A stretch of DNA of 48,401 nt, the filler included, from Jimgerdemannia flammicorona (Eukaryota), in the NCBI GenBank assembly GCA_003990765.1. It is 2 parts of 2 records of this genome, joined end to end, with 100 filler letters (N's around TTAATTAATTAA, not from the genome) between each part and the next. Parts side by side here need not be neighbours in the genome. Positions count along the whole stretch, not along the records: positions 1 to 24,153 come from RBNJ01001018.1; 1 more part is not named here. One strand, written 5' to 3'. Positions within the stretch are counted from its first letter, which is position 1; each line of letters begins with the position of its first letter. The position numbers were made by a program, and so were the translations under genes. Under the pieces are notes generated by a model. It was not told where the DNA came from. It saw only the letters and a program-made list of their open reading frames with translations, and did not search any database. Shown piece after piece: positions 1-33,900 of the stretch.

Positions 1-32
<32 letters not shown>

Positions 33-35
<3 letters not shown>

Positions 36-1197: not shown

Positions 1198-1199
<2 letters not shown>
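33..1199 (-). mobile_element. Old, heavily decayed LINE ORF1-region fragment; host of the younger LINE, probably continuing at ~7200-7560
   Basis: Bases ~600-1170 align by eye with 5990-6570 of the adjacent LINE (e.g. aaattccaagattaacttcttaagtaat vs aaactccgagattgacttcttgagcaat), with many C>T/G>A changes. Confidence 0.75.
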
Positions 1200-1231
<32 letters not shown>

Positions 1232-1374
1232 GTCACTTGGACTTCCTTTCTTTATTATACCCATAAATATAGTGAACTCACTCCCTAACTGATCCCCCTA
1301 GGGGCCCTCCCCCCACCTACCCCTACTCTACAAAAGGCTACTTTGTCCAATACTAACTCTACTCTTCCATCACT

Positions 1375-4300
1375 CTATTCACAGATTCTTGCCACTAAGC
1401 CACAACATTGCCCCCATTGAGGACCCCAACTCACCCACCATCCAGTCAGCAGATCTCCCAACAACTCCTCTAACCATAATACCTTCTTCTGTAGCCCCAT
1501 CTGCCACTCCTCCTCAAATACAAAAAGCCAATATCCAGTTAGTCCCACCCATACTGCTAACACCCACTCTACAGTGAGCCAACTATCATCTACACCACCT
1601 ACTAGCCAAGATCTCAAGTCCTCTCAGTGGCCCCCCTCCTCTGCTGGCCATCACTCTACACTCAGTCTATTCCCTATTTCTACCCAAAAGTCCCCCAAAA
1701 CCTCACACTCTCCTAGCCAGTGTTCTGGCATCTATACAAGTCCCCCAGCTTATCCAACATTGTAGTACTTCTCACAATCTAAACAGCCACCATCCACCAG
1801 ATGCCCAGTATGATAATTTAACATGATATTCCTCTGCAGCATTCACCACCATACCACCCAGAACTTGGGAGGAAGCCACCACTGTACCTCAGCACTCTAT
1901 GACCAGATACCTGCCCAGTCTCACTCCTCACTGATCCCTGTCACCTGCCAGCCACTTGGCCAAAGATCTAGGCCAAGACCCTGCTGCAACTCCACTCTAT
2001 CTCCAATATTAAACTCAGTAAGTGAAGCACTCCCCAGAAGCAGTCTATCCCATCACCACATACCAGGACCCCACATCACCTCCCCCTCATTGCCTTGCCA
2101 GCACAGGCTAATTCGGTATGCTCTATCTACCACCTCCCACCAAAAGCCCTTAAACTGCAGTCACTGATTTTCATTCAGCCCCACCAAAGAAAGCAGATCT
2201 CCTGAGGACCCTCGAGGGGAGGACCTCATCTCCCACACCTTCTGCATCAGTGGTACCCATCCTCCTCCCTGTAGTTCAGTAGCTCTCTTCAACCACTAGG
2301 CCCTCAAGCAGTACAACCTCTTAGGGAAATCCACAAGGCCAAGACTCTTCTGACCACTGGTATTACAAGAGTATTCCAACTGATCTGAGATCTCCCCCCT
2401 GTCCAAATCTAATCTCTAGCCACCTTCATCAGTCTCTTCACCACTCAAGCTAGGAAGTCTAGATGATAGGCTATATACCATAGCTTGGAGAACCAGTAGA
2501 CATTCAGAATTGATACATGCCCTACCAGAGAGATATAGCGGCCTCCCCAACCTCGAAGGGCCTCCCCCCAAATGGTCACTCTGCTCTTCCACCACACTTA
2601 TAGCAAGACAGACCCATATATAGAAAGAAAGATGCTCAGATATCACACTACCTCACTAGTAGGGACAATTGTTCCAATGATGTCCCCCCCCACTAGTCCA
2701 TTCCCTAGCACCATTGTCTCACACTTATGCTAGTTGAGCTTTACCCCAGAGTGAGCCTCATACCATTTCACTATTCTCTTAAGTGCCTCAATATCTGCCA
2801 CCAATCTAAGTCCAACCACTATGTTATCTGCAAAGGCCCCCACCTTCCACACTATATCATATATAGAGAGCCCTGCCATCTTCCAGCAAATTCTATCCAT
2901 CAAAGGCTCTAAAGAAAGGGTATATAGCACAGAGGACAGAGGGTCTCCCTGAGGAACTCCTCTTCCCAAGGGAAATGCCAGACCTTAGTAACCATTACAC
3001 ATTAATGCTGCCTGACTGCTATCTAGCAGATTCAATATAGAAACCCAAAATCTTGGGAGAACATCAATTCAATCCAACACCTTGCTCAGCCAAACCTGCC
3101 ATATATGGTCATAGGCCTTCTTCTGGTCCAAAAAGACCAATCTTCCATTCAGTCCATAAGCCCAGGTCCCTTCAATGATACCATGTACCCATACAGTCTC
3201 ATCTCTTATAAGTCTGCCCCTAACAAAGCTCTGCTACTCCTCTCCCAGCACCTGTTGGGTAACTTTCTGCAACCTTGTAACAATTACCTTAGTCACCATC
3301 TTCTTGTCCATATCCAGAAGCATGATCAGTCTCCAATTCTTTCAGTCTTCCCTCCTTCTCTTGTCTTTGTACAATAAGGCCACCAGCCTGAGGTCCTGCT
3401 CTCCAACCCACTCACTACTCTGAAGAACATGGTCACAGAAAGCAGCCATCTCACCCAAAACTCTGGGGACCTTTACCATCTTCTTCCAGAAGTCCCACAG
3501 TAACCCATCCTCCCCTGGTACTGTTCCAAGCTTAGTTGCTACAAGGATACTCTGGATCTTCTCTCCTTATACTGGTAAGATCAAGTTCTGCTACTTGTGG
3601 TGGCCCCCACTCCTCTAGTGTATCTACAATCACTGCCTCATCAGCACTCCCTTCTCTCTCACTCCACAAAACCTGCCATCTCTTCTTCAAAACCCCTAAG
3701 ATTTGTTGTATTCCATGTACCATGTCCCCATTAGCATCTAAGACTCCATCTCACTGATGTCGCACCCTCCTAGCTTTGAGGAGTCTTGACAGGTACCTAG
3801 TAGGCTGCTCAATCTCCTCAAGCTCCTGCCACCAAAGTCTAGCAACCATTCCTTATATATGAGTCTCTTCCTCTTCTCTCAACATCTGTTACAGTTCTAC
3901 TATCTCCAATTTTGCCCACTCTATCCTCCACTCCTCCACCCCATCAGAAGTAAGCAAATTTGCCCAATCCATTTGCAGTCTCCTCAGCCTGCTGGAAGCA
4001 CACCTCATGTGCTTCCTCCTCTATCTCCCAGCTTCTCTACCAGCTCCTCCCTAATAGACCCTCACAGCCTCTTTCAATCTCATCCAATGGACATCCACAG
4101 ACAAACCCTCATATCTCCAGATAAAAACCTTTACCTGAATGTCCTCCACCTATGCATCTCACAACCCCTTCTCAGCCAGCAGGAAGGAGTTAAGGTGCCA
4201 ATGTCCAGGTCCATCTCCACTCCCCCCAAACTGCCCCTACTTCAACAGTCTCCAGTAATCAGACCATGGGCACCACTCTACCTCCAGTGTCTTCCAAACA

Positions 4301-4935
4301 TCAGAACCCCAACACTCAGCTGTCAGAATCTAGTCAATCCTTATACCCAAGCCATTCACCCAATATATGTAGACCCTGGTGTTGCCCCACCATGTTCTGC
4401 CCATATTCCCTAAGGAGCTCAAATTCTCCACCTCCTCCCATGCATCCAGACCTCCACTTCTCTCCCCTGCACTCCTCCCTCCATCTGTTCTATCTAGATG
4501 CTGATCCCAAACCATATTAAAGTCCCCACTGAGAACATCAACCTCTTTCTCTAAGAGAATACCCTCCTCTAGCAGCTTCTTAATCTATGCAATTCTCTCG
4601 CCCCTAACTGCTGGGCAGTAGCAAGAGCCAACCCTCATCAACTCTCACTCTGGCTGATGCCAATCTCCCCAGACCAAGTGATCACCCCAGCTCCTGATTT
4701 CCCTCAAGTCTCCTCTATCCTTCCTCACCAGAATTGCCACTTTTCCAAACCAAGCAATAGTCCTACCCCATTCTCTAGTCCACTCTACCCGATCATCCTC
4801 ATCCTCACACCATATATCCTATAGTAAAAAGAGATCAGCCTCCAATCTTTTGAGCCAAGTAAAAATGTTCTTATACTGCCCAGATCTCCTTAACCCATTC
4901 ACATTCAAAGAGAAAATGTTGGTTGTACTATTCAT
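1375..4935 (-). pseudogene. LINE ORF2 (AP endonuclease + reverse transcriptase), disrupted by stops and frameshifts
   Basis: Starts MNSTTNIFSLNVNGLRR (APE motif I) at 4935. RT motifs LDQKKAYD (~3130), GVPQGDPLSSVLY (~2940) and AFADNI (decayed YADD, ~2830). Confidence 0.9.
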
Positions 4936-4949
4936 AAGAAATAATGTTA

Positions 4950-6801
4950 TATGGCAATCCCATCCTCTACAAGTCCGCATTTGGCTCCTCCTACACCAAG
5001 TCCAAGTTATATTCAGTAGTTAGTTCCCTTTCTCTAGCTTTCCATACCTCCAACCCTTCCAGAAGTTCTACCATCACCCTATCTTCTCTCTCCTCAAAGT
5101 TCTTGTGATACTCCAGACAGGCCTCCTGCCAGAGCTGCAAACCATGACACTCTGCCCAACAGTAGGCTGCCTGCTCACCAGTGACCACTACCAGCTCCAC
5201 CTTCCTCACCTCATCAATCTCATAATCCTCCTCCTCCAGGAAGATTGCAAGAATCTCCACCTTCAGCACCTCTACCACTCCATCTCCATACAGAATTTGC
5301 ACCCAATACTCCTCAGGTATTATCTGCAGATCCACTTCTCCCAATGCCTCAGCCACAAGGTTATCTATCACCTTACTCATCCACAGCAAGTTCCCCACCT
5401 TCTTCTCACTCAGAGTCTCTGGCCACCCTGCATCCAACATCATGGTATCAGCTCCTACACTGGCAGCCTCATCCCACTCCTCCTCAGGGATATCCACCAG
5501 CTTATCCTCACCAACTGCCACCACCTGGCCCCCTTTCACCACATCGAGGACCCCAAAGTGCACTCACTGAGCCCCCTGCATCAGTATATCCACTGTTGTC
5601 CCTCTCTTCACAGCCGGGCCCCTCCTGATAAGAGGGGGGGGGGTGGTATCCAATTTCTGCTCCCAGACCTCAAATGTGCCATCAGTATAGAGATCCTTGC
5701 TCAGTATCTTCCCAGCTCCTTCCTTGCTTGCCTCCACCTCTCCTTTGCCTTTACTAGCCCAGACACTGGCTTCAATGCCCCCAGACCCCTTATCTCCCTC
5801 TGCCTTCTTCTTTGCCTCTTCTTTCATACTTGCTAATAGCTCTCTCTGTCTCCTGCACCCCTGTACCCACTCTCACTGCCTCTTGTTAGTATGAATATAC
5901 TTCCCATCTACAATCTCCAGATGTGTTGACTCCTCAAACACTCTTCAGGCCTTTGCTCTCCTCTCAACCATATCACTCAACTCCTCCAGAGCCTTCAACA
6001 AGTCCTCTTCCTCCTCTTCACTCCCTTTCACCTTTGATACCTTACAGATAAAAGTCTCCCACATTAGTACTGAGGGCCAGTTACCTATCTTCCCTGTGAC
6101 CTCCTTCCCTGCCAGCCAAATCCTGACATTGACATCACCCATTCTGAATGTGGTCCCCTCCTACATCTGGAAGCCAATGTCCACCACATCACCATACTCT
6201 ACCATCACCTCCTCTACCCTCCTCCTAGTCTCCTCCTTTGTCACCATTAGTACCCCTCTCACCAGAAGCTATACCACCCTGGGGTCCCATCTCAAGCACT
6301 GTACCATAGGGACCACCACTTTTCCAACTACTACTCCAATCTTCAGGGCCTCATCCAGTGGGCCCACCTCCTCAAAGCCCACCTCAACCCCCTCCAGACT
6401 CTTCAGGAACTTCATTGAGGCTACCCTAGCCACCTGTTTTGAAATAAGCCCCAGGACCATCCTCACCATCACCACTAAGTCCTAAAAGTACAAGGTGGCC
6501 ACAAACTCCGAGATTGACTTCTTGAGCAATGGGGCCACCACCAGCCCTATTATACTATCTGCCAGGTCTCCCTTCTGCATTGGAGGCCCCTACTCCACCT
6601 TGTCATTAGCTCTCATATCTCTTTTTTTTTCCTGAACCCCTATCATACTCCTATCAACAGTTAGTCCCAGCTATAGTCCCTTCAGCCCCTATACTTACCT
6701 CTCCCCTCTGAGGGTCACTTCTCCTCCTGACACTAGTCTTGTCCTTCTCATCAGCAGTGCTATCTCTGGTTTCAGCAGACCATCCACTCACCTTTATCTT
6801 G

Positions 6802-6860
<59 letters not shown>

Positions 6861-7089
6861 GTTACTTGGACTTCCTTTCTTTATATACCTTTATCTTGTC
6901 AGTAAAGCTAGAGAGACCAGGCCTTCCCCCAGATTCACCAGACACTAGTCCTTCTCCAGAGCCTTCACCACCCTTCAACCCTCTAAAAGCCCCCATCCTT
7001 AATCTATAACCTCTCTCCACATGCTGCCAGCCAAAAGTCCCAGGTCCGCCTGATCCAGCATGCCTGTCAGAAATCTTGCTCAATGACAT
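4950..7089 (-). pseudogene. LINE ORF1, disrupted
   Basis: Series of acidic/coiled-coil minus-strand ORF fragments (4991-5563, 5564-5827, 5945-6142, 6269-6475, 6862-7089) directly upstream of ORF2 and inside the TSD-bounded element. Confidence 0.65.
6804..6886 (-). mobile_element. Extremely 5'-truncated copy of the same LINE family (~29 nt of 3' end + poly(A)) inserted in ORF1
   Basis: poly-T followed by atagttacttggacttcctttctttat matches 1229-1255. Flanked by 14-bp TSD acctttatcttgtc at 6790-6803 and 6887-6900. Confidence 0.9.
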
Positions 7090-8511
7090 TTTTATAGTAT
7101 CTTTTCTCTGAGTTGTATTGAAAACTGTTGCTTGAAGTTTGTGTAATATGAATTATACAAGAAAGAGGTGGCAACTGCCAATGTCTGCTCAGCTCTGCTA
7201 TTAGTAGTCATATGTATCTAAATTTTTTGTCAGATTTCCAGTCATATTGTCATTAGTAATCTCACCTCTACTCTTAGCTATAGCCTCACTAGTCTCTATA
7301 TTAACCTCTCTAGCCATTAATCCACCAGTTCTTTCAGTACTTATTTTTTTCTTCTCCTCAGTCTTACTACTCTAAGTACTTCCAAACTGGTCTCCTGTCA
7401 TTATCTTATTAATAAAACTCATCAGCCTCTACTCTTCTCTATCTCTACCTAATAGTTGACTTCTATTTTACTTTTCTTACTCACTTTCACTACTAAAGAA
7501 CTCCAATCTCATGTTATAGCCCCTTCTAATATATTATCACTTAAAGGTCCTAGATTTATTCAACTCAGTATACTTATTAGAATACTTATTGATCACTATA
7601 TTATTATTATTTTTCTCTAATAAACTATATAAAAGTATATTGTAAAGTTTATATATATAATATGAGAAAAATTATATTTTCTTTTTCTTTATTAACTTAA
7701 TTATTGCTATTTATATTATTATAATGAGATTTATTTATTTATTTATTTTTAATTATTTTAGAAGATATTAATATTTGAGAATATGTTATCTTTTCATTTA
7801 ATATATAAGTATTATTTAAATTTTTAATTATACTTTTCTTTTTTTAAATGAGATAAAAAAAATAAATTAGTTAACTTCTTCTTCAGAATTTTCACCCCTG
7901 TTATAATAACTGAGAACTATCAACTTTAGCTTCAAAATATAAGATATAATAAGATAAATCTTTCTTTAAAAAAATTTAAAAACTATAACTAAAACATTCT
8001 ATTCAAAATTATTAATTAATAGTATTGCAAAGAGATTGACTTGTTATTAAGATTCTAGCCCAGTATTTTTTAATATCTTGACAACTTTAAATATTACAAT
8101 TAATAATAAAGACAGGCTGATTATACGCTTGCTAATATTCCAAGCACATCACGTGATTTAATGAGATTTTCAGTTTAGCCGATTTTGGTTACATGACTGA
8201 GGTCTTTAGGTTGGCTGTGCTATATCTATCTAGGCCACGAATCCAGTCTCTCAGAGTGCCATTGTGACCGCAAAGAACTAGCATACTTTTAAGCAATGTT
8301 ACATTCCCATGAGTCATCTACGGTTATACCTGTCCAAACTCTCAATCAAAGGACACGAGCTCGCCATGGTTGAAAAAAATAAAATGCACCATGAAATCTC
8401 GGGTCCTAACTGTCGAGACCCAATATGGCTTAGTAAAAAAATTGGGATTTCCGTTTATATAACCGATACTGCAAACGCCTCGGCCTATGACATATTAAAT
8501 ATGGATATATA

Positions 8512-8754: not shown

Positions 8755-9040
8755 GATATATCTGTGGCCAGACATATATGTATATAATGATGATTAAATG
8801 CCACTGGAAGCAAACTCTCAAAATGGCAATCACCGATGAAGCAGAAACTTGAGACACGATGGGTATCACACAAGCTAGTACTATAATAGCCATGTTTACT
8901 AAAGAGAATGTTCCAGGTATCGTGTGAGGTTCCGAAAAGAGATAGCCGTCACAATTTCGGTACAGCACGATAACTTGCAGACAACTCTCAACTCTTCTCT
9001 TGATCACCGAAAGAAATATCAGTATACACGTTTGCCCCCC

Positions 9041-12000
9041 ATGTCCTCCTCCTTCAAACTTCCAACTCCTTCACTTGACGAAATCAAAGCCTGGGATGAA
9101 AACAGAGTCTTTGAACACTTTCAGCATCCCGCTCACAAATTGAAACCCGAATATGTCGCAATCTTACAAATTCAGGAAGTAGACGGGAACGCTCTTTTTC
9201 AGATTACCAAAGAAGATCTATTGGGACCACCATATAACTTACCTGGTGGACCTGTGGCTAAAATCATCGGTGAGATCGCTCGATTACGAGGTAATTGATG
9301 ATTATCAAATGCAAACGCTTCACGGAATTATTTTCAAGTAAATGATTCCGCTAACAGTTTGAATATTATTCGAATGTTTGGTATCTTAGCTCACTGGAAT
9401 TTTAACATTTCATTTGCATCTAATCTAGGAACAGGCGTCGGTCAGCGTGCATCTCTGGAAGGTGTTATCTTTTTTTTTTTTTTGGTGACAGTCATGTGTC
9501 TTAACACACGAATTCACCATCTTGATTTAATACATAATTTGATTATAGAAAATCACATTGGCGATAAGGAAACCATCGCATTCGAAATGAACACGAGCCT
9601 GCGAAACCTGAATCTATCGGGTATGTAGAAGTGAAGTACGCATTCATCTGTTTAGTGTTCTGCTGGCAACTATGGGTAAAAATTTATATGTTCTACTGTA
9701 GGCAATGGTACTGGCGAGGAGGGAGCCAGCACTCTAGCCGAAGGACCGAAAATGAACACAAACCTGCAAACTTTGGATCTAGACGGTATGTAATAACCAA
9801 GTTCATTGCCTTTATTAATTTAATTTTTAGTTTTCTTTTCTTTTATTTGCTTTTAATTTTATTTTACATTCATCTGTTTGTTGTTGCTGATGGGCTTTTA
9901 TGTGTTCCTCTGTAGGAAATACCATTGTCAAGGATGGAGCCAGCGAACTGGCAGAAGTACCGGAAATGAAAACGAGTCTGCAAAACCTGAATTTAGAACG
10001 TATGTAGGAAGAAAGAAAATTACATTTTTACATTCTCCTGTTTAATCTCCTAGCTGAAAAACACGTGAATACATTTTATGTATTCTTCTGTAGGAAATAC
10101 CATTGGGGAGAAGGGAGCCAGCACATTAATCGAAGCACTGAAAACGAACACCATCCTGCCAACTCTGAATGTAAAAAGTATGTCGGAATGAAGCATATTT
10201 ACATTCTTTACACTTACATTCTGAGCTGTCAGTCATGCATGTGAATGTTATATGTTCCTCAGTAGAAAATGACCTTATCACACAAGCAGAAGCCTTGGTA
10301 ATGATTAGAAGCTTACAAAATCTGGATCTACTGGGTATATATAAATGAAGCACATTACATTTTATTCCTTCTTTTTCGATCCATTTGTTCCATTTCCTGA
10401 CTAACAGTCGTGCATATATATTTATATGGTTCTCTGTAGGGTGTGGAATTGGCGAAGAGGGAGCTAGCATCCTCGCCGAAGAACTGAAAATGAACACGAG
10501 CCTGCAAAACCTGAATCTGGAAAGTATGTTAGTTATTTTGATGCTTTAGCAGACAACCACATGTATAAATTTTTGTATTCCTCTATAGACAATGGTATTG
10601 GCGAGAAGGGGGCCAGCGCACTAGCCGAAGCACTGCAAATTAACACGAGCATGCAAGACCTGAATCTACAATGTAGGAATGAAGCGCGTTATATTTTGCA
10701 TTCATCTCTTTAGTGTGCTGGCGGACAACAATGCATATAAATTTTATGTGTTCTTCTGTAGACAATGATATTAGCGAAAACGGTGCCAGCGCATTATCCG
10801 AAGCATTGAAAATGAACACGAGCCTGGAAAATCTGAATCTATTGGGTATACAGAAATGAAATGCATTACATATTTATATTCATCAGTTTAGTGTTCTAGC
10901 TTACGATTATGCATGTACATCTTATGTAGGCAATGGCATTGGCGAGAAGGGAGCAAGCGCACTTGCCGAAGCACTGAAAATTAACACGAACTTGCAAAAC
11001 CTGAATCTACAATGTATTTAGGAATGATGTACATTATATTTTTGCATCCATCTACCACTCATATCCGTTTATATGTTCCTCTGTAGCCAATGGAATTGGC
11101 GAGAAGGGAGCCAGCGCACTAACCGAAGCACTGAAAATGAACACAAGTCTGCAAAACCTAATTCTATGGTGTATGTAGGAATGAAGCATATGTTATTTTG
11201 CATCTGTTTAGCATTTCGGCCGACAAACACGCATATATAATTAATGTGTTCCTCTGTAGACAACGACATTGGCGAGGAGGGGGCCAGCGCACTAGCCGAA
11301 GCACTGAAAATGAACACGAGCCTGCAAAACCTAGATCTAGGCAGTATGTTGCGAATTATATTTTGTATTCATCTTTTTTGGCATTATTGCTAATACTTAT
11401 GCATACCATTTTATATCTTCCTCTCTAGACAATGGTATTGGCGAGAAGGGAGCCAGCGCGCTAGCCGAAATATTGAAAATAAACACGAGCCTACAAAACC
11501 TGAATCTGGAAAGTATGTAGTAATTAAGTGCATTATATTTTCACAACCATCTGTTTAGCATTCTAGTTGACAACCATGGGAAAATTTTTTGTGTGTTCCT
11601 CCCTAGGAAATATCATTAAGGAGAAGGGAGCCAGCGCATTATTCGAAGCACTGAAAACGAACACCATCCTGCAAAATCTGAACGTAACAAGTGAGTAGGA
11701 ATGAAGCATGCTACATTCTTCGTACCCGTGTTCTGGCTGACAGCCATGTATGTAAATTTTATATGTTCCTCGGTAGGCAATGGCCTTACAGCAATCGCAG
11801 AAGCCCTGATAATGATAAGGAGCCTACAAAATCTGGATCTATCGGGTATGTATGAACGAAATGCATTATATTTATTATTTTCAATCTTTCTGTTTTGTGT
11901 TCCGACTGACAACTATGCACATATATATTTCTCCGTAGGGTGTGGTATTAGTGAGAAGGGGGCCAGCCAAATAGCTGAAGCACTAAAAATGAACACGAGC

Positions 12001-13775
12001 CTGCAAAGCCTGAATCTAAGAAGTATGTTGGATTGAAGTGCATTATATTTTTGCATTTATCTGTTTTATGTTTTAGCAGACAACTGTGTATATTAATTTT
12101 ATGTATTCCTCTGTAGATAATGATATTGGCGAGAAGGGAGCCAGCGCACTAGCCGAAGCACTGAAAATTAATGCGAGTGTGCAAAACCTGAATCTAACAG
12201 GTATATAGGAGTGAAGCGCATTATATTTTTACATTCATTTTTTTAACGTTCTAGCTGAAAAATACGCGGATTTTTTTTTTTTTGCTATTACTCTGTAGAC
12301 AGTCATATTGGCGAGAAGGGAGCCAGCGCTCTAGCCGAAGCACTGAAATGGAATACGAGCCTTCAAACCCTGAAATTATGGAGTACGTAGGAATGCAGCG
12401 CATTACGTTTTTACATTGATCAGTTTGCCATTCTAATCGATAAAAATGAATATATATTTTGTGTATTCCTCTGTAGACACTGTCTCTTTCAAAAAGGATA
12501 TTGGCGATAAGGGAGCCAACGCACTAGCCGAAGCACTGAAAATAAATACGAGCCTGCAAGACCTGGATCTAACAAGTATGTAGGAATTAAGTAAAAATAT
12601 TTTGCATTTGTCTAACTAACCACGCGTACACATTTTGTATGTTCCTCTGTAGACAATTGCATTGGCGAGAGGGGAGCTAGCGCACTGGCTGAAGCACTGA
12701 AAATCAACACGAGCCTGCAAGCCCTGTATCTACATAGTATGTAAGAATGATATTTGCATTCATCTGTTAAGTATTCTAATTGACGCGTATACTTTTATTT
12801 GTTCCTCTTTAGGCAATGTTATTGGCGAGAAGGGCGCCAGCGCAATAGCCGAAGCACTGAAAATGAACACGAGCCTGCAAGTCCTATATGTAGGAGGTAG
12901 GAATGAAGCGCATTTTATTTTTGCATTCATCTGTTTAGTGTTCTAGCTTACAGCCACGCGCATACATTTTTTGTGTTCTTCTGTAGTCAATGATATTGGC
13001 GAGAAGGGAGCCAGTGCACTGAGCGAAGCAATGAAAATGAACACGAGCGTGCAAAACCTGAATCTAACAGGTATATTGGGATCAAGCGCAAGATATTTTT
13101 GCAGTCAGCTCCTTGATGTTCTAGTTGACAAGCATCCATATACATTGTATGTGTTCCTCTGTAGAAAACGGTATAGGTGAGAAGGGAGCCAGCGCACTAG
13201 CCCAAGTACTGAAAATGAACACGAGCCTACAAATCCTGAATCTATTCTGTATGTAGGAATTAAAGCGCATTATATTCTTTTACTTATTTGTTTATTGTTC
13301 TACCTAAAACCACTCATATACATTTTATGTGTTCCTCTGTAGCCAATGGTATAGGCGACAAGGGAGCCAGCGAATTAGCCGAAGCATTGAAAATGAACAC
13401 GGGTCTGCAAAATCTGGATCTAACATGTATGTAGGAATGAAGAATATTCATTTTTGCATTCATCGGTTTAACGTTCTCGCTGCTAACCAGGTGTGTACAT
13501 TTTATGTGTTTGTAGGGAATGGTATTGGCGAGAAAGGAGCTAGCGCACTAGCCGAAGCACTGAAAATGAACACGAGCCTACAAGTCCTTTATGTAGGAGG
13601 TAGGAATGAAGCGCATTTTATTTTTGCATTCATCTGTTTAGTGTTCTAGCTGACAATCACACATATACATTTTATGTGATCCTCTGCAGCCAATTGGAAT
13701 ATTGACGAGAAGGGAAGGAGCGCACTAGCCGAAGCGCAGAAAGTGAACAAAGTCATCTACATTAACCAACTTTAG
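9041..13775 (+). CDS. SAM domain + 25 ribonuclease-inhibitor-like LRR protein (gene 1), one LRR per exon
   Basis: Exon 1 9041-9290 (SAM: W..NRVFEHF...ILQIQEVDGNALFQITKEDLLGPPYNLPGGP). Micro-exon ~9429/9435-9461. LRR exons start at 9549, 9702, 9916, 10094, 10266, 10440, 10589, 10762, 10930, 11087, 11260, 11429, 11607, 11777, 11939, 12117, 12299, 12477, 12653, 12813, 12987, 13165, 13343, 13516, with terminal exon 13690-13775 (TAG). All introns GT-AG phase 1; no stops in the spliced frame. Consensus xNxIGEKGASALAEALKMNTSLQxLxLx. Confidence 0.9.
9549..13775 (+). repeat. Tandem array of ~180-bp exon+intron units (LRR array 1)
   Basis: Repeated exon core attggcgagaagggagccagcgcactagccgaagcactgaaaatgaacacgagcctgcaa and repeated intron gtatgtaggaatgaagcgcatt...ctagctgac...tgtgttcctctgtag. 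Confidence 0.95.
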
Positions 13776-14281
13776 CGGAAACGATTGGACTTCCTATTAT
13801 AGCGAATTTCAATGTATACACCTAGTTAACCGCAGTTTTGCGATCAGGCCATAAAAATACCGTCTGTTTAGTTTTACCTTGCCAATATGGATTCCAAGCA
13901 TCCCAGACCTTTGCGTTCCCATCATACTACTTCGGGGGTGTGACTATGAAAGGTCGATGGTGAGAGTCTTTGTCAATTATGTGGCTCGGCACAATGAGTC
14001 ATGTCAATTTTGCAGGTAGCACAAGTTCGTCATATGACAACCATGCTTACTACAAGAGAATGTTCCGTGTATCGTCATGTGAGGTTTGAAACACAAAAAG
14101 GGATTGCAGTGCAATTTTTGGAGAATGTCGAAGGACCTGATTACCGAGCTTATGGAGCTCGGAGTTATTTTACACGGATAGGTCCCACACGGATAAATAC
14201 CTTGCGAAAATGGTTTTCGTATCGGCGGGCAACTCTCTTCTTGATCACCGAGAGGAAAATCGGTATACACATCAACCCACC

Positions 14282-14699
14282 ATGTCCTCCAAACTTCCAA
14301 ATCCTTCGCTTGACAAAATCGAGACCTGGGATGAAAATAGAGTCTTTGAACACTTTCAGCTTCCGGCTCTCGGATTGAAGCCCGCGCATGCAGAAATCTT
14401 CCAAAAACAGGAAGTCAACGGCAAAGCTCTTATTCAGCTTACCAAAGAAGATCTATTGGCACCTCCATATAACTTGCCTGGTGGACCTGTGACCATAATC
14501 ATGAAAGAGATTTCTCGATTAGGCGGTAACTACAGTCAAATGCAATGGTTTCAAGAAATTATTGTCAAATAATGGTTTTGCCAATAGTTATAAATATTAT
14601 TCAAAGTTCCGTTACCTTTTCTCATCGAAACTTAAACATTTCATTTGTATATATCTGACCTATGAACAGGGTTCGGTCAGTATGCGTTTCCAGAAGGCG

Positions 14700-14737
<38 letters not shown>

Positions 14738-17700
14738 CTTTTTGTAATGGCCATTAGTCACAGTTCACAAATTTGTTATCTTGAATTCTAACATAATTTG
14801 CACTTTAATTATATGTAAAAGCTATCAGCCAAAGTAACGTAAATGCTATTATCAAGAAAAATGTGGCTGACGTCGATGAACTGAAGCATAATATCGAATC
14901 GGTGAGACAGAAGATCGAATCGACAATGAATAAGAAGGATTTTATTTTTTATTTTTTATTTTATTTTTATTTTTTGCAAATTTTATAAAACTTTCCTGAT
15001 TATATTTCATTTTCTCAACATGTATATAGATCGTACAGGGCATAGAGCGTAATACAGAAAAAATAATGAGCGATATGGAAGACATAAAAGTCGATACAAG
15101 AAACATCCACAGCAGCCTCCAGGAACTTAGCGGCAAGGTTGACGGTCTGCCTAAGCTTATGCTTGATATCCATGAGGATACAGTCCCGCGACTCTTCTTC
15201 ATTTTTCCCGAGGATGGTCATTGGTTGGCACCATCAATCGACAGCCTCTTCACCAAAAAGTTCCGTCTATACTTTCTGTGCGAGCACGAAACCACCACGA
15301 CGAAATATTTCCATTTGGCATATCATGGCGGTTATCCTGTCGTCCGACCACGCGAGGTATATTATTTCGATATTCGGTATACCTTGCACTTCAGCTGTCG
15401 AGATACAATTATTTATTTTTCTGCTTATCATATGTCTACTGGCATTTATTTTAGTTTGTAGCTAAATATGGACCATATATACGTACGGTAGGTCTTCTGT
15501 TTGAATCTGAGCGTCCGAACTCTCTTTGCAAACCATCTAACATTTATCGTGCGAAATAGATTATGCCCTATCTAATAACGGCTGTTCGCTTGGGGGAACG
15601 CCTATTAGAATGCGTTCCTGCAGTCGGAAAATCAGCAGCAGAAGTCCTACGGGCGGGCGGTGACGTTGCTTCGATAGCATACAAGGCCACAGAATCGTCA
15701 ATCTTCACAAAACCTGAACTTGAGTTCTGCGCGCAGACTGAGAAAATGTTTGAGATACTTGGAGACAACCCCGAGGCTACTGACAAGCAGGTCACGAAAT
15801 ATACGACTGATACTCCGTCGTTTGTTCAGACGCAAGGAAAACCCCTGGGAATGATGGAAAGGCCTGATCTACGGGAACTTCAAGGTACAGTAATACATTC
15901 ATTTTATCTATTCAAGTGCGCATGCACGGATTTTACTTTATGCTCATTATTTCTTTTGAATTTTTGTTTATAGCTTACCTTCAGGGCTTGGATAATTCCA
16001 ACCGACTTGGAAATCTGCAGCGCGTGCTCCGTCATGGGGAAAATGGTAAAACAACTGTGCGGTGGGTGTGCAAGCGTCACGCCTCGGAATGGGAGACGAC
16101 AAATGCTGTTCGGGATGTTCATATGGTCATCAAGAGTAGCTCCATAGATAACGGCGTGACGTTTGACGACGCGACTTGGGAGCTGACGTTCGCATTGGTT
16201 TTTGGTCTCAATATTCATCTTGTATCTTTATATCTATTTTGTTTTCATACTCAAGATATTGTATTTATTTTAATATCAGGATTCAGAACTTGCCTAATGG
16301 TTCTCTGCATAAATTTCGAAATTCGGTGACGCGCGCAATGTCTGGTATCCCTTTGCGGAAAATCAGGTGGTTAGTTTGACTTTTAGAAACCTTTGCCTGA
16401 TCATAGTGACTAATGAGTGAATAAAATTGTAGCATTATAGATTGTGAAAAGGCTGATTCAGAAGATGTAGAAGCTCTGGTTAATGCCACAACCACCATTG
16501 AAATTCTTAAGTAAATTATGTTAAATTTTTGCTTTATAAACTTAATAAATTAAATATTAACACACTCTTTGCTATTGATATATATCTAGACTTAAAATGA
16601 AGAATATGCAGTATGATCACTTATCATTCAATGTTTTTATTTGACAATAGGTTATAGATCAGAAATCTCTATAGTAATAATTACTAATGAAATTAATCTT
16701 TACTGGTTTATAGATATAAAAATATTCTTCAGAAGTGTCTTCAGCTTCGAGAATTGGATCTCTCAGGTATATTATAATAACTGTTTAATATTTTCATCTG
16801 TGGCGATTTCGTATGAGCTTGTGTAGAGCAATATTTACAGCCAAGAGCAGCTGAGGTTGTGCAAATGAATATGTGTCTTCGAAGTTTGGGAATGTACATA
16901 TGAAAGCAAACTACATCTTTTCATTTATTTCTAACTACCAGCTATATATGTTATTTAGGCAGTCATATTCGCGATAAGGAAACCAAAGTACTAACTGAAG
17001 TATTTAAAAAGAGCACAATCCTGCAAAATCTGAATCTCTCAGGTATGTAGAAATGAAGCATATTTTATTTTTGCATTCCTATGTTAGTATAATAGTTGAA
17101 AATTGTGTATATAATGTATCTGGTAGACAATTACATCGGCGAGATGGGAGCCAGGGCACTAGCCGAAGCACTGAAAATGAACACGAGCCTGCAAAATCTG
17201 GATCTATATGGTATATGAGAACAAAGCGCGCTGATTTTTTCTTTTATTTCGCTTTTTATTTTATCATTTTTCGGTATTGCCGACGGCTGTGAATATATAT
17301 TTTATGTGTTCCTCTGTAGGAAATACCATTGGCGAGAAGGGAGCCAGCGCGCTAGCCGAAGCATTGAAAGTTAACACGAAACTACAAAACTTGGATCTAG
17401 GCAGTATGTAGGAATGAAGTGCATATTCATCTATTTGGTATTCTTGCTAATAACTACAGATATACATACATTTTATGTGTTCTTTTGTAGACAATAGCAT
17501 TGGCAAGGGAGCCAGCGCACTAGCCAAAACATTGAAAATGAACACGGGCCTGCAAAATCTGAATCTGGAAAGTATGTAGGAATGAAGACCATCCTAATTT
17601 TACATTCATCTAGCTGAAAATCATGTGAATACATTTTATGTGTTCCTATGTAGGAAATGGCATTGACGAGGAGGGAGCTAGCGCATTAGTCAAAGCACTG

Positions 17701-17913
17701 AAAACGAACACCATTCTGCAAACTCTGAATGTGAAAGGTGTGTAGGAATGAAGCGTGTTACATTCTTTGCACCCGTGTTTCTTTCTGACGGGCCTACATG
17801 TGATTTTATGCGTCCTCCATAGATAATGCCTTTACCGCACTATCAGAAGCCCTGATAATGATTAGATGCCTACAAAATCTGGATCTATCAGGTATGTATG
17901 AACGAAGCGCGTT

Positions 17914-17958
<45 letters not shown>

Positions 17959-19353
17959 TTTTTTTTTTTGTTTTTTTTGATCTATCAGTTTTGTATTCTG
18001 GCTGACAGTCATGCATATATATTTATTTGTTTCTCCATAGAGTGTTGCATTGGCGAGAAGGGAGCCTGTGCACTAGCCGAAGCATTGAAAATGCACACAA
18101 GCCTGCAAATCCTGAATCTGGAAAGTATGTTGAATTGAAGCGCATTATATTTTTGTATTCACCTGTTCAATGTTTAGACACATATACATTTATGTGTTCC
18201 TCTGTAGACAATTATATTGGCGAGAAGGGAGCTAGCGCACTAGCCGAAGTACTGAAAATGGACACGAGCCTTCAAAACCTTAATCTGGAATGTATGTAGG
18301 AAGGAAACGTATTATATTTTTGATTATATTGGTTTATTGTTCTAGCTGACAACCACACACATACATTTCTGTGTTCCTCTATAGTCAATGGTATTGGCGA
18401 GAAGGGAGCCTGCGCACTAGCCGAAGCGCTGAAAACGAACATGAGCCTGCAGCACCTGGATCTATGGGGTATGTAGAAATAAAGCCTATTTTATTTTTGC
18501 ATTCATCTGTTTAGTGTTCTAGCTGACAGCCATGATATTATACATTTGACGCATTTCTCTGAAGGCAACGGTATTGGCGAGAAGGGGGCCATCGCACTAG
18601 CCGAAGCATTGACAAAGAACAAGAGCCTGCGAAACCTGGTTCTAATCCGTATGTAGGAAGATGCGCGTTATAAAAACTTGCATTCATATGTTTAGTGATC
18701 TAGCTGACAATCACGCGTATACATTTATGTGTTCCTGTGTAGGAAATGATATTGGCGAGAAGGGAGCCAGTGCACTAGCCGAAGCACTCAAAATGAACAC
18801 AAGCTTGCAACACCTGGATCTATGGGGTATGAAAGATTGAAGCACTATATTTTTTATTCATGCATTTAGAATTCTAGCTGACAACTGCATATTTATACTT
18901 TATGTATTACTCTGTAGAAAATGGCATTGGCGAGAAGGGAGCCTGCACACTAGCTGAAGCACTGAAAATTAACACGAGCCTGCAAACCCTTAATCTACAC
19001 AGTATGTAGAAATGAATGCATTAAATTTTGCATTTATCGGTTTACTATTCTAGCCGACAACTTGGTGTATACATTTATGTGTTTCTCTGTAGACAATCAT
19101 ATTGGCGAGAAGGGAGCCAGCGCACTAGCTGAAGCACTGGAAATGAACACGAGCCTGCAAGACCTGAATCTACATTGTATGTATATAGGAATGAAGTGCA
19201 CTATATTTTTGCATTCAACTGTTTAGTGTTTAGGTGACAACCTCATATATATTTTTTATGCATCCCTCTGTAGTGAATGGCGTTGGCGAGGAGGGAAGGA
19301 GCGCACTAGCTGAAGCGCAGAAAGTGAACAAAGTCACCCGCATTAGAGTATAA
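14282..19353 (+). CDS. SAM + coiled coil + central PRLF/RLYFLCE domain + 14 RI-like LRR protein (gene 2), paralog of gene 1
   Basis: Exon 1 14282-14525 (SAM). Micro-exon ~14670-14696. Central exons ~14822-14901, 15030-15356, 15455-15487, 15560-15884, 15974-16187, 16280-16366, 16433-16510, 16590-16610, 16714-16766, 16827-16883 (some boundaries uncertain). LRR exons start at 16959, 17127, 17320, 17491, 17654, 17823, 18041, 18208, 18385, 18565, 18743, 18918, 19093, with terminal exon 19274-19353 (TAA). Confidence 0.82.
16959..19353 (+). repeat. Tandem array of ~180-bp exon+intron units (LRR array 2)
   Basis: Same repeat unit as array 1. Confidence 0.95.
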
Positions 19354-19559
19354 TATCGGCGGAAACGAGGTGGAATGGGAATCCTATTATGGCGAACTTT
19401 GATAAGAAAATATAATGGCAATCCCCACCCTTTTTCTATCATGTGACTGGCGACCAACACTCCCCCCCTACTTCTCTGTTAACGAATTAAATCGTGGCGA
19501 GGAGCTAGCGAAGAGGTTCCCGCATCCCGTAAGGAAGCGAATATATTTTGACTTACGCC

Positions 19560-20580
19560 ACGAGTTGGAGAGATGTCTTTGTCGCTTTGGTCAACGTCAT
19601 TTAAGGTGTTTCGTCTAACAAAGGAAACCTCGACTAGTTCAAGTGGCTTGTTAGCTTGTCCAGAAAGAGTGCTAGAGTATCGTGCTGTCGTTGAAAAAGC
19701 GATACCGGTATTGCGTCTGGTTGGAGAAAGGTTAAAGCTTCAATAATATTTGCTGCCAACGGACTTCGCTCTTGAATTTTTGGAATGGCAAATTCCACGC
19801 CGTAGCGATTGTCTCCTTGTATTTGTTTGGGGTAGCATTGCCCAGCCGGTAAAGAGCAGTTGCGGATTTATTTTAATTAGCCTCAGATAGGATATAGGTA
19901 ATATTTCCGTTTCAATGTATGAGCGCACAATATTGATGGCTAATGGAAAGCGATACAGCTCTTGTGAGATTTCCTTGGCGGTTTTGAAGTTGTCGGAAGG
20001 AGGGTGTGAGCCAAGCAAGGAAGGGCCTCCTCGTTCGCCATCTTGTCCACCTTAATCAGTTATCTCCGTCGGTTGTGGAAAAGTAATCGACTACATCTTT
20101 CGTGCTTTCCATGTTATCCAAAAGTAACAACCATCCCATTCCTTGGCTCGAGCCATCCCCGAATCCGATCAATCAATACGTCCTCATTTCTGGAAGCATC
20201 GACTTGAATGTTTATCATAGCTTCGTCGTCAACCCTCAAAATGCATCTATAGTCGCCTTGCTACTATCAACATCAAGTTAGAAGATAAAGGAATATTCTT
20301 CGCGATGCTGGTAGCAATATTTTAGCATAAGCTCGGATTTTCCCATCCTACCAATGCCTTTGAGAACCCCCGATATGCGCACGCCTTTCGATTGGTTGGT
20401 TTCCATTGCTTCATACCTTTGCCCAGGATGTCCTCTCGGCTTTCAAATCGGTTTGATGTCTCAATCCCAACTGAACATAATTTTTCGTCAATGTTTGCGG
20501 CACTGGCGATTGGCTTGCCGACCGATTCTGGCATTAATTGGGAGGATAGGCCCAATGTTCAAGGTTTTATAAGTGCATGA
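19560..20580 (-). pseudogene. NB-ARC (STAND NTPase, fungal NLR-type) pseudogene fragment
   Basis: In order on the minus strand: NRFESREDIL (F.GRE..L), Walker A LKGIGRMGKSELMLKY (~20365-20320), Walker B GWLLLLDNM (~20135-20110), GLPL-like FPLAINIVRSYI (~19950), then TAWNL.F...PLAANIIEALTFLQPDAIP. Contains stops and frameshifts. Confidence 0.8.
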
Positions 20581-30809: not shown

Positions 30810-30972
30810 TGTTCTCCCCTAATAAAGATAATAAAGAGGAAATGAGATATGCATCAGCATGATTACCAAATAAAGGAAATAAGGAAACAGACTAATAAGA
30901 GAATACCCACTCACCTCGAATAAGCTTCATTATTCTCATATGCTTCAATAAGAGCAAGAAGCCGAAGTTATA

Positions 30973-33900
30973 GTGAGATTTCATTCTCACATCTATGATG
31001 ATTCTGAATTTGAAACCGATGGTGAGGACTCTGCCGAAGACCCTGAAGATGATGACTATATTGATGAATCCATTAGAGGAAAGGAAGGAAGATCAAAGGG
31101 GGCCGAAAACAAATCATCGACAGTGACGATACATACCAGTGATAACACTGATGGTGAGCAGTTTGAGCAGCTTGACGACTTCATTCAAGACTCCAATAAA
31201 GAATCCAAAGATAAATCTGTTGATGAATCCAAAAGAAAGGAAAAACAGAAGGTGCAAAATATCAACAAAAGCATTAAACGAAAGAGAGGAAGACCAAAGG
31301 GGTCCAAAAACAAATTATCGATGATGACACCAAAGGGGACCAAAAAAAAATCATCGACAGTGATGATTGGCATTCAAGACCCTGATGAAAAAAAGGACTT
31401 ATCTGCAGTTCCTGAATTTGCACGGCTCAAACACATGAAGCCTATTCTCCCAAGACATTCCGCCCTTCCCAATCATCTTGGTGAAACCCCATCTGGTATC
31501 GACGTTTTCCATTTATTCTTTCCTGACATAATGCTGAAAACCATTGTCAACAGAATGAATTACTATGCTGTAGACAAGGATGCCAGAAAAACTGGCAGAA
31601 CATGGAAAGATCTAACTATACCAGAGCTCATTATCTTCATCGCCATTTGTATATACTTCAGTATTTTCCACGCAGGCAGGAATCTAGAGTGGCTTTGGAA
31701 TAATGATGTTCAAAAACCAGTGCATAGAATACTTGAATATATGTCCTGTTATCAGTTCCAACAAATTAAACAATTTCTTCATATCTCTCTGCATGGTATT
31801 CACAATGGCGACTACTATGCAAAGCTCGAACCATTGCTTTCCCACATCCGAACAACTTCCCAATCTATCTATCTCCCAAGTTCCAACATATCCATTAACA
31901 AGATAATGGTATAATTTTCAGGCTATAGCAGAGATACATACTGAATGAAATATAAACCAATCAATGAAGGCTTCAAAATCTTCATGCTATGCAATTACGG
32001 TTATATAGTGACTTCCAAAACTAGTTCAATGTTATATTATTTTTTACTTTTTATTATTTTGAAAATGTAAAAAAAATAGATAAAAATATGAAACTAGAAT
32101 ATATTATAGCCCTATACTAGAGATTTCCATAGATCATAATTTTGTCATATTTGGTATTGTTTTTGCTATTGAAAATAATTTTTAAAAAGGTCTGCGCATT
32201 GGACCAGTTTTGGAATAACCATTTCAATTAACACTAAATGCGATATTGGTTAATACTTTACATAGTCCTCTTTGCCTTATACACTGCACCAACACACCTC
32301 AGCATGCCGTCGATTAAATCCATACATACTTGGCTGAGAATTGCATTCCATTCATCTTCCACACATTCCCAAAGCTTGTATATGCCCTTTGGTAGTTTCT
32401 CATATAGATTAAGCTCCAAACAGTGCATTATGCCCTGAAGGAAGCCGGTTTGAAGGCCACCATAAAGTGAAAGAAACCCCTGACATGTGCCCATCCATAC
32501 CTCTGACATGCGCTCGATTGGGCTTAGGTCCGGGGACTACGCTAGCCAGAAAGCTGTTCTCTATCAATTGTTTACCTGGCATTTCCATACTCATTGTTGA
32601 CTGTCAACTCTTCTGCCAGTACATAAAAGCTCGATACAAATTCGTGTACAAGTATAGAGAGTGGGTTGATGATTGGAAGTGCATTATATTCTTTGACGAG
32701 ACCAAAATCAACCATTTTGGCTCAAAAGACATACTCATATGACACCGACTTTAAAGTTTGGTGGTTCGGGCTACATGAATTACTGTGGTGCAGATATACA
32801 GGATATGTATGCAAAATCGAAGGAACAATGAATGCCGAGCTTTATCAAAGCATCCTTGACAACAAATTAAAGAAATTGATTATGTATTTAAAGATCAATC
32901 AGAAATAACTGATATTTCAACAGGACAATGACTCAAAATATACTCATAAATGGCAACGAAATGGTTCAAGTATAATGACATTTTGCTTGGCCATCTTCTT
33001 GGAGTAGTTTTGTAACCTCGGGGGCTGTATTAGTATTACCACCAGTCATCTGGTGAACTATCCAGGATTTGTCACAATCTGAGAGTATTTTTGGATGACC
33101 TCCTTTTAATGATGTAGTAGAGCAATGCTTCTTTTTAATATGGATTATGGTTGTCTTGCTAACATCAGTCCATTCGGCAATTTGACGTGTCACTACACAG
33201 AGCGATGATGTTTTTTTGAGTGTCCAACGAGATTTTTCTCATTCTTTTTTTAAAAAATAAAAAAAGAGATAGAAAAAAATATATATATATATGAGCGTGT
33301 GGAGAGGGATTAAGAGAATAATCATGCAAAATTTCACACTTATACGGCGAATTTTGATGGTCTGTGATACAAAAATATATTTATTGAAATAGTCATTCCA
33401 AAACTGGTCCAATGTGTGGACTTTTTTAAAAATTATTTTCAATAGCAATATCAATAATAAGTATAATAAAATTAGTATCTATAGAAACCTTTGATATAGG
33501 GCTACAATATATTCTAGTTTAATATTTTTATCTATTTTTTTTACATTTTTAAAATAATAAAAAGTAAAAAATAATAAAACATTGGACCAGTTTTGGAAGT
33601 CACTTATATGAACATTTCTCCCAACTTTGCATACCGTCGATAATAGAGAAATCAAGTGGATTGAGGGGCTTAGCAAAACAGCATCTTTCATGGTTCATCT
33701 TATTGAACAGTTGCCATTCAATACTCAGATATTCAATATCTATATGGACAACTACTTCTCCAACATTGCATTATTCAAATATCTATGATCAAAGGAAATT
33801 GGAGCATGTGGAACAGTTAGACAGGGGTCAAAACAGTTCCCAGAACTACTTAAGATTGGTAAAAAAGCAATGCATGATTAGAATACAACCTCAGGCATAA

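Follow-up and report, generated by a model that had tools for sequence, protein, structure and literature searches.

An exon cassette for an uncharacterised Cys/His domain, present in one and absent from the other of two tandem leucine-rich repeat genes in Jimgerdemannia flammicorona

The stretch of DNA analysed here (the window) is 48,401 nucleotides (nt) of intron-rich DNA, 100 filler letters included, from two records of the Jimgerdemannia flammicorona genome (GCA_003990765.1); positions 1 to 24,153 come from RBNJ01001018.1. It contains two genes for leucine-rich repeat (LRR) proteins, gene 1 (9041-13775) and gene 2 (14282-19353), lying head-to-tail on the plus strand with 506 nt between them, and our subject is a cassette of exons of about 2 kb that gene 2 has and gene 1 lacks. 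Gene models were built by reading the sequence directly over 8800-9750 and 13950-17150 and joining exons wherever reading frame and splice signals agreed. Gene 1 has 27 exons encoding 786 amino acids (aa) in an open frame, and 26 of its 26 introns are GT-AG. Gene 2 has 24 exons (25 with an optional exon) encoding 874 aa, also in an open frame, and its introns are GT-AG throughout, the sole exception being a GC donor after a micro-exon.

The upstream region of gene 1 (8989-9040) is homologous to that of gene 2 (14230-14281) by a blastn high-scoring segment pair (HSP) and by MAFFT alignment, and weaker conserved blocks extend the homology to about 8890 and about 14040 (near 8890-8935 and 14040-14090, respectively; MAFFT). 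Exon 1 of gene 1 (9041-9290) is SAM-like (Pfam SAM_1, E = 0.029, and a PDB profile search) and ends in phase 1. It is followed by a 33-nt micro-exon (9429-9461, phase 1 to 1) that MAFFT aligns to the micro-exon of gene 2, by intron 2 (9462-9548), which contains the cassette-less junction as judged from MAFFT and pairwise identities, and by the first LRR exon of the gene model (9549-9620, ..HIGDKET.., phase 1 to 1). A further 23 one-repeat LRR exons, mostly of 84 nt and in phase 1, occupy 9702-13599 (Tandem Repeats Finder, TRF, period 178). The terminal exon, with the stop codon (13690-13775), is 81% identical to its counterpart in gene 2.

Gene 2 begins in the same way, with a SAM-like exon 1 that ends in phase 1 (14282-14525; Pfam SAM_1 and PDB profile) and a 27-nt micro-exon (14670-14696, phase 1 to 1, GC donor; gene model and MAFFT), after which come the exons that gene 1 lacks. 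E3 (14822-14901) starts in phase 1 and opens a predicted helical, coiled-coil-like stretch that continues into E4 (15030-15356), where the first conserved block (VPRLFFIFP .. RLYFLCEH .. HLAYHGGY .. RPRE) was recognised by phmmer and by conservation. E5 (15455-15487) is only 33 nt long and encodes FVAKYGPYIRT; the family alignment supports it, and the E4-E5 join is mirrored by the contiguous ..RPREFVAQFGSYV.. of the Endogone protein P0002. E6 (15560-15884) encodes a helical insert and ends in ..DLRELQ, and E7 (15974-16197) carries the second conserved block (AYLQGLD..LGNLQRV..VRWVCKRH) and the beginning of a post-domain region, both exons being placed by the family alignment and E7 by conservation as well. 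Contiguous sequence in relatives supports the E5-E6 and E6-E7 joins. E8 (16287-16366), within the putative post-domain alpha/beta region, is reached by the sole in-frame join found and is colinear with the family; an alternative E7/E8 splice at 16204/16280 was discarded because its reading frame hits a stop. E9 (16433-16510) and E10 (16714-16766, ending in phase 1 with ..LQLRELDLS) complete the set in the gene model. The optional exon (16827-16883) is 57 nt long, phase 1 to 1 and truncated LRR-like, with a weak donor, GTTTGG, and the frame is open with or without it. The first full LRR exon of gene 2 (16959-17042, ..HIRDKET..) is the counterpart of 9549-9620 in gene 1, and 12 further one-repeat LRR exons in phase 1 (17127-19176; TRF period 175) lead to the terminal exon and stop codon (19274-19353). 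Two long poly-T tracts lie within the introns of gene 2, one of about 45 T (14697-14745) following the micro-exon and one of 62 T (17917-17978), and intron 2 of gene 1 has a shorter poly-T at the site matching the tract in intron 2 of gene 2.

The block found in gene 2 alone comprises eight exons (14822-16766, 400 aa), or nine if the optional exon is counted (14822-16883, 419 aa). Both of its edges are in phase 1, the start at 14822 and the end at 16766 or 16883, and the LRR introns of both genes are all phase 1, so its removal or skipping preserves the frame. Ahead of the block the two genes are homologous. A blastn HSP pairs 14230-14718 with 8989-9483 (76.8% over 500 columns), and in MAFFT the homology continues via the SAM exon, intron 1 and the micro-exon through nearly all of the following intron. 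Intron 2 of gene 1 can be aligned to intron 2 of gene 2 until only 7 nt remain ahead of the acceptor site for the first LRR exon of gene 1, and the junction therefore lies inside gene 1 intron 2. A second copy of the cassette was not found in the window by tblastn with the 400-aa product, all matches at E <0.8 being the cassette itself, and the gene 1 region gave no blastn HSP with 14822-16940 at E ≤1e-20. Gene 1 is in effect a natural counterpart of gene 2 that lacks the domain. This confirms the observation in the original prediction that both genes share the upstream region, SAM-like exon, micro-exon and first LRR exon and that about 2 kb of extra exons belong to gene 2 alone, for which blastn, tblastn and MAFFT agree. 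The motifs it quoted all occur in the translated exons, the gene models uphold its phase-1/phase-1 cassette, and the end it gave, 16883, is that of the optional in-frame exon 16827-16883.

The first exons of both genes resemble SAM domains at a borderline level. In Pfam, exon 1 of gene 2 scores 23.0 bits against SAM_1 (cut-off 23; E = 1e-4) and 20.3 against SAM_2 (cut-off 20.5), and exon 1 of gene 1 scores 15.2 bits against SAM_1, under the cut-off. A joint profile of the two exons searched against PDB returned SAM domains in 44 of 45 rows, headed by ETV6, polyhomeotic-like 3, Sfmbt, SAMD1 and SARM1, with best single-domain E-values of about 2e-3 to 3e-3. SAM domains of the ETV6, polyhomeotic, Sfmbt, SAMD1 and SARM1 type form polymers or rings, and both exons thus show a profile-level likeness, at a borderline score, to polymer-forming SAM domains (polyhomeotic, ETV6/TEL, Scm/Sfmbt, SARM1). 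An AlphaFold model of the SAM exon from a shallow, two-sequence alignment (mean predicted local distance difference test, pLDDT, 70.6) contains a beta hairpin and does not reproduce the SAM fold, and Foldseek on this weak model found no match at E ≤1e-3. A predicted complex of the two SAM domains scored 0.01 against a mark of 0.34, controls not run, and is evidence neither way. Among 69 candidate longer proteins, in what was a weak search, no homolog of the SAM exon was found at E ≤1e-3. Between the two genes the SAM exons are 82.8% identical in nucleotides, with a synonymous divergence (dS) of about 0.34, a nonsynonymous divergence (dN) of about 0.16 and dN/dS of 0.47 (81 codons).

The LRR arrays of both genes are tandem units of 175-178 nt, each an 84-nt exon plus an intron, with about 71%-72% matches (TRF). 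Over 30 standard LRR exons the scaffold is near-fixed, x-N-x-I-G-E-K-G-A-S-A-L-A-E-A-L-K-M-N-T-S-L-Q-x-L-x-L-x, with entropy peaks of 3.43, 2.38, 2.30 and 1.78 bits at positions 28, 3, 24 and 26; the split first codon is also variable. In standard LRR geometry these variable positions form the exposed concave face of the repeat. Pfam LRR_6 fails on single LRR exons, which are too short, the model spanning exon borders. The array of gene 1 is about twice as long as that of gene 2 and contains two blocks colinear with it (HSPs 16945-19330 vs 10916-13221 and 17301-19330 vs 9683-11663). Gene 1 has two copies, and gene 2 a single one, of an atypical triplet of repeats (..TNTIL..LNV., a short ..ALIMIRSLQNLDL. 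repeat, and a GCGI.. repeat). The duplicated triplet and the two colinear blocks point to an internal segmental duplication in the array of gene 1.

Relatives of the cassette are numerous. When E4 was searched with phmmer against 1.84 billion representative proteins, there were 166 matches with E ≤1e-3, of which 13 reached 1e-10 or better and two 1e-30 or better (best 3.8e-32). Two Endogone fragments head the matches. Behind them come short unnamed metagenome proteins, and further down the long proteins, from Mortierella, Dissophora and Podila, together with one Rhizophagus 'kinase-like protein' and one Rotaria record. The profile A3, made from 27 short members and scored only on the 8000 candidates that share most words with it, retrieved 484 proteins at E ≤1e-5, with lengths of 861-2455 aa; nearly all of the named ones are from Mortierellomycotina, under the labels 'hypothetical protein' or 'RNI-like protein', and several share contigs. 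The family is represented in Endogone, Mortierella, Podila, Dissophora, Linnemannia, Benniella, Modicella, Haplosporangium, Gryganskiella, Gamsiella, Rhizophagus and Rotaria. The closest relative of E4 is Endogone sp. FLAS-F59071 BC937DRAFT_91592 (P0001; also P0002), with an identity of 60% (BLASTP) to 69% (phmmer); unlike gene 2, these two are fragmentary models (226 and 192 aa) with a non-SAM N-terminus and no LRR part modelled. Metagenome loci scanned with E4 gave one 19-residue match, which we judged to be chance. The sequences are already in the databases as hypothetical proteins and hence are not new; it is the domain that is uncharacterised. A search of full-text literature returned no description of the family, which is weak evidence of its being undescribed, as the family has no searchable name. 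The members include a bdelloid rotifer record (P0019, Rotaria sp.) and similar unnamed ENA proteins (P0014, P0026, P0047), and the rotifer occurrence may stem from a transfer between fungi and rotifers, from common descent or from contamination.

Residues ~147-867 of the spliced gene 2 protein are colinear with Mortierella-type proteins at 32%-33% identity over 760-840 columns (for instance, 32.6% over 841 columns and 302 bits with P0123, and 32.9% over 799 columns with P0197), and gene 2 is therefore a full-length member of the family. The match of gene 1 to the same proteins is confined to the LRRs, and C-terminal RNI-type LRRs are the only family feature it possesses. In Mortierella antarctica KAF9989650.1 (P0024), M. 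alpina P0197, P0116 and P0123, the helical stretch, both conserved blocks, the linker and RNI-type LRRs follow one another as in gene 2; the cassette and the LRRs therefore belong together in other lineages. The Mortierellomycotina relatives have the same invariant Cys/His set as gene 2, and differ from it in overall sequence (~30%-33% identity) and at the N-terminus, which is another conserved module or none, SAM never being seen. The C-terminal LRRs of gene 2 (13 LRR exons and the terminal exon, all in frame) are 42%-48% identical to the LRR_6-positive parts of P0024, P0116, P0123 and P0197. The original prediction had likened the domain to the uncharacterised domain of Mortierella-type LRR proteins, an assignment that phmmer, the profile search and the colinear alignment all bear out; homologs bearing LRRs were thus found.

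In single members among the 150 listed relatives, other modules accompany the domain. P0103 has C-terminal NHL repeats (E = 1.9e-33) in place of LRRs, P0131 (Rhizophagus) has a kinase-like N-terminus, and P0142 has a weak HEAT match, a combinatorial assortment of domains as in NLR families. A further protein, P0146 (WD40/nSTAND1), which gave the only STAND match among the 150, was judged spurious, its match to the query being a short repeated stretch only. At the N-terminus, in columns 1-140 of A3, many Mortierella-type and rotifer-type members share a conserved module some 80 residues long (..Q.F....(variable)..W.D[IV]...FP ... P..I..HP[GD]V.L.VV..), for which there was no Pfam match; in gene 2 the SAM-like exon occupies its place.

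The cassette product consists of the predicted helical stretch, a conserved domain with invariant Cys and His residues, and a short linker before the LRRs. Conservation was scored over 63-77 aligned sequences, gene 2 included. The first strand of the domain has P, R, F and P at positions that vary little or not at all. The L-Y-F-L-C-E motif has Cys in 100% and Glu in 97% of sequences, and at the next position 88% have a second Cys, where gene 2 has His. The two His and the Tyr of H-x-A-x-H-x-G-Y stand at 100%, 99% and 100%, and P-x-E-F...Y-G-x-Y is again invariant or nearly so. A variable helical insert follows, and after it come D-L-R, L-G-N-L-x-R and W-x-C-x-x-H, with Trp at 100%, Cys at 100% and His at 98% (63-65 sequences). 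Gene 2 has the first family block (P-R-[LY]-F..[LF]-P ... R-L-Y-F-L-C-E ... H-[LV]-A-x-H-x-G-Y ... P-x-E-F ... Y-G-x-Y) in E4 and E5, where all near-invariant residues are kept but the second Cys (a His), and the second block (D-L-R-x-L..[FY]-L...D....L-G-N-L-x-R ...... W-[VI]-C-x-x-H) in E6 and E7, with W, C and H present. Such a pattern would suit either a zinc site or catalysis by the Cys/His residues. Where the original prediction had proposed possible Cys/His metal ligands, the positions are indeed near-invariant, as would fit a metal-binding role.

A model of this region was obtained for a relative, P0073 (AlphaFold, 88 sequences; mean pLDDT 78.3, predicted template modelling score 0.63). 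In it, two N-terminal helices (2-21 and 26-48) precede four strands bearing the first block and a long helical hairpin; two strands beyond the hairpin carry the second block and lead into an alpha/beta region resembling the start of an LRR solenoid. E3/E4 of gene 2 aligns in the family alignment to the helical stretch of P0073 that precedes the first strand, the fold being that of the relative and not of gene 2. The family alignment and the modelled helices together are consistent with the helical stretch that had been proposed ahead of the domain. By hydropathy, the helix after Y-G-x-Y is membrane-like in 43 of 74 members (best 19-residue Kyte-Doolittle mean at least 1.6), with a median best mean of 1.66 in relatives versus 1.02 in gene 2. 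In the P0073 model this hydrophobic helix sits in the hairpin, packed against the domain.

Searches for a known relative of the domain were negative. Pfam gave only chance-level rows for the cassette exons of gene 2 (E at least 0.02 at a threshold of E ≤1) and no match for the central domain in the 150 listed relatives (thresholds 1e-5 and 1e-4). Sequence searches of PDB matched the LRR part alone of P0024, and with profile A3 for the domain returned coiled-coil noise only (E at least 0.35). Foldseek, a check suggested by the original prediction, found no clear fold match for the P0073 domain model at E ≤1e-3, and the top score in ESM Atlas was 0.81, under the useful range. A Walker A motif (P-loop) occurs in 0 of 77 domain segments and is absent from both genes.

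The reading we prefer, to which we give a probability of about 0.7, is that gene 2 is a full-length family member and gene 1 its cassette-less tandem paralog, with a receptor-like role. The change would have been a loss. Gene 2 would keep the ancestral layout, and a block of about 2.1 kb and 8-9 exons would have been deleted from gene 1; with the ends of the deletion in two flanking phase-1 introns the frame would survive, leaving gene 1 to encode an intact SAM-LRR protein. Besides its promoter-proximal region, gene 1 would have retained the SAM exon, the micro-exon and the LRR array. The pairing of cassette and LRR type in distant lineages makes loss from gene 1 more likely than gain by gene 2. 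Introns of the two genes are 71%-78% identical, which together with a dS of about 0.34 indicates that the duplication is not recent. No stop, frameshift or broken splice site is seen in the 27 exons of gene 1, and this intactness despite divergence argues for its continued use.

A history in the opposite direction would have a SAM-LRR gene duplicated and gene 2 taking its 8-9 exons from a family member by recombination in introns (exon shuffling). A symmetric phase-1/phase-1 block and phase-1 LRR introns favour insertion equally, the weak search found no SAM-bearing outgroup, and the LRR-like remnant at 16827-16883, on the 3' edge of the block, is what recombination between LRR units could leave. 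Mortierella-type cassettes, however, precede LRRs of near-identical consensus (42%-48% identity), which speaks for an older combination, and a gain would require an exact replacement inside an already related LRR gene; we find it quite improbable. It also seems unlikely to us that gene 1 is a functionless deletion copy without any partnership, held open in frame by its recent origin or by conversion among LRR units. Tandem units of 175-178 nt with about 71%-72% matches do make conversion plausible, and the dN/dS of 0.47 in the SAM exon (81 codons) is moderately low only. But a neutral coding sequence of 2.36 kb in 27 exons at a dS of about 0.34 should show damage, an expectation reasoned rather than simulated, and there is none; the unique parts of gene 1 (SAM exon, micro-exon and terminal exon) are intact too.

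The two remaining alternatives concern gene 2 itself. Its cassette exons might lie outside the SAM-LRR transcript, as a separate gene or as exons skipped so that gene 2 mainly yields a SAM-LRR protein; the frame is kept when E3-E10 are skipped, and the micro-exon before them has the sole non-GT donor. We think this very unlikely, given that the cassette opens in phase 1 and lacks any ATG upstream of cassette residue 40, that the SAM exon is just ~300 nt away, and that relatives join the domain to N-terminal domains and C-terminal LRRs in single proteins. More doubtful than implausible is the proposal that the central domain is the effector itself, a zinc-dependent or Cys/His enzyme, gene 1 being merely without its activity. 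The invariance or near-invariance of Cys, Glu, His, His, Tyr, Trp, Cys and His would suit an enzyme, as would the strands bearing conserved residues, modelled at a block pLDDT of about 79-93, and the count of 0 of 77 segments with a P-loop. Yet Pfam, PDB profile and fold searches matched no enzyme family or fold, and a structural zinc site fits the same residue pattern equally.

Several points weigh against the preferred reading of gene 2 as a complete, receptor-like gene and gene 1 as its cassette-less paralog. The weak search found no SAM-bearing relative, and there is therefore no outgroup that fixes the polarity of the change; for this reason loss is not proven. Nor can the breakpoints be fixed to a single base. 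The SAM-to-E3 and E10-to-LRR joins are predictions from frame, splice signals and colinearity with the family only, and the micro-exon at the first of these has the GC donor. Gene conversion in the LRR array could hold gene 1 open without selection on the protein. A Pfam threshold of LRR type is reached in just 13 of the 150 listed relatives, and PF13516 in 22 of 120 listed A3 matches; the C-terminal repeats are divergent in most relatives. The central domain lacks a detectable relative of known function, so that any role assigned to it would be by analogy.

What the family suggests by analogy is the layout of a modular intracellular receptor, NLR-like, that would act without nucleotide hydrolysis. 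As predicted from sequence, the layout comprises a variable N-terminus, a helical/coiled-coil stretch, a Cys/His domain of about 200 residues split by a helical hairpin, an alpha/beta linker and RNI-type LRRs. The LRRs would sense a ligand, their variation being concentrated at concave-face positions. The helical stretch and Cys/His domain would couple sensing to oligomerisation or signalling in place of a nucleotide-binding domain, and the N-terminal domain (SAM, kinase-like or others) would be a swappable adaptor or effector. Gene 1 would be a sensor-only, regulatory or decoy form, and could join gene 2 through SAM-SAM contacts. We infer the receptor role and the SAM partnership at this general level. 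A more specific version, in which an unrecognised class of intracellular LRR receptor would use the helical stretch and Cys/His domain as its nucleotide-free module for switching and oligomerisation, with gene 1 as sensor or decoy and gene 2 as executor in SAM polymers, strikes us as a long shot.

NLR/STAND receptors (animal NLRC/NLRP, fungal NACHT/NB-ARC proteins) share with this family the three-part layout, large lineage-specific expansions and conserved repeats with few variable positions, and the LRRs of P0024 match those of NLRP proteins and NOD2 in PDB. Pfam, in contrast, finds NACHT and NB-ARC in 0 of the 150 listed relatives (1e-5 and 1e-4) and in none of the gene 2 exons (E ≤1), and a Walker A motif is lacking; with LRRs present and no NOD, the family is not NLR by definition, and its architecture may be seen as a variant of the receptor design with the nucleotide-binding module replaced. 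The likeness to ROCO/TORNADO1 proteins (LRR-Roc-COR), or to the region after COR, which the original prediction had proposed, found no support. Roc and COR are equally absent by the same Pfam searches, and what is shared is that both are LRR-containing multidomain proteins, whereas the LRRs of the present family are C-terminal to its domain. Truncated or paired paralogs of immune receptors are familiar from plants, as sensor/helper NLR pairs and as TIR-only or NB-less copies, and many of the plant pairs are head-to-head. Genes 1 and 2 are likewise adjacent, one of them without the central module; they differ in being head-to-tail and are known here from sequence alone.

Elsewhere in the window, positions 1-8000 are C-rich on the plus strand, with a GC skew of -0.38 to -0.50 in four successive 2-kb windows versus ~0 elsewhere, and several overlapping Pro/Ser/Thr/His-rich frames are open on that strand. 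This region had no tandem repeats at a score of at least 150 and no Pfam match for the two open reading frames (ORFs) tried. Immediately beyond the 3' end of gene 2, three adjoining frames are open on the minus strand (19479-20051), and these may resemble the helical region after the nucleotide-binding domain of fungal NB-ARC/NLR proteins; Pfam gave nothing for them at E ≤0.01. A piggyBac-type transposase is spread over two ORFs about 2 kb apart (30952-31914 and 34078-34659, plus strand), which match DDE_Tnp_1_7 at E = 1.4e-17 and 9.1e-8 and, weakly, zf-Tnp_2, and is probably interrupted or degenerate. The ORF at 36436-37107 (minus) has a NADAR domain (E = 1.8e-18), and two exons at 45280-46323 (plus) encode a GT64 glycosyltransferase (E = 1.9e-23 and 7.7e-27). 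These other genes (transposase, NADAR, GT64) are ordinary.

In published surveys of fungal NLRs, the repeats reported are WD40, ANK and TPR, with no LRRs (PMC4986451; PMC10197012). A receptor class of the kind proposed, if true, would amount to hundreds of genes in early-diverging fungi, plus a bdelloid rotifer record, with the role of NACHT/NB-ARC filled by another module, and would give fungi the LRR-based receptors that those surveys did not find. If the family members are receptors, they would represent a separate solution to linking sensor, switch and effector, and the view of fungal systems that resemble innate immunity would change. Genes 1 and 2 offer a natural experiment, with the same promoter-proximal region, N-terminal domain and LRR type, with and without the central module. 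Should the role of the family prove different, the pair would still be a clean case of in-frame loss of a whole domain, enabled by uniform intron phase.

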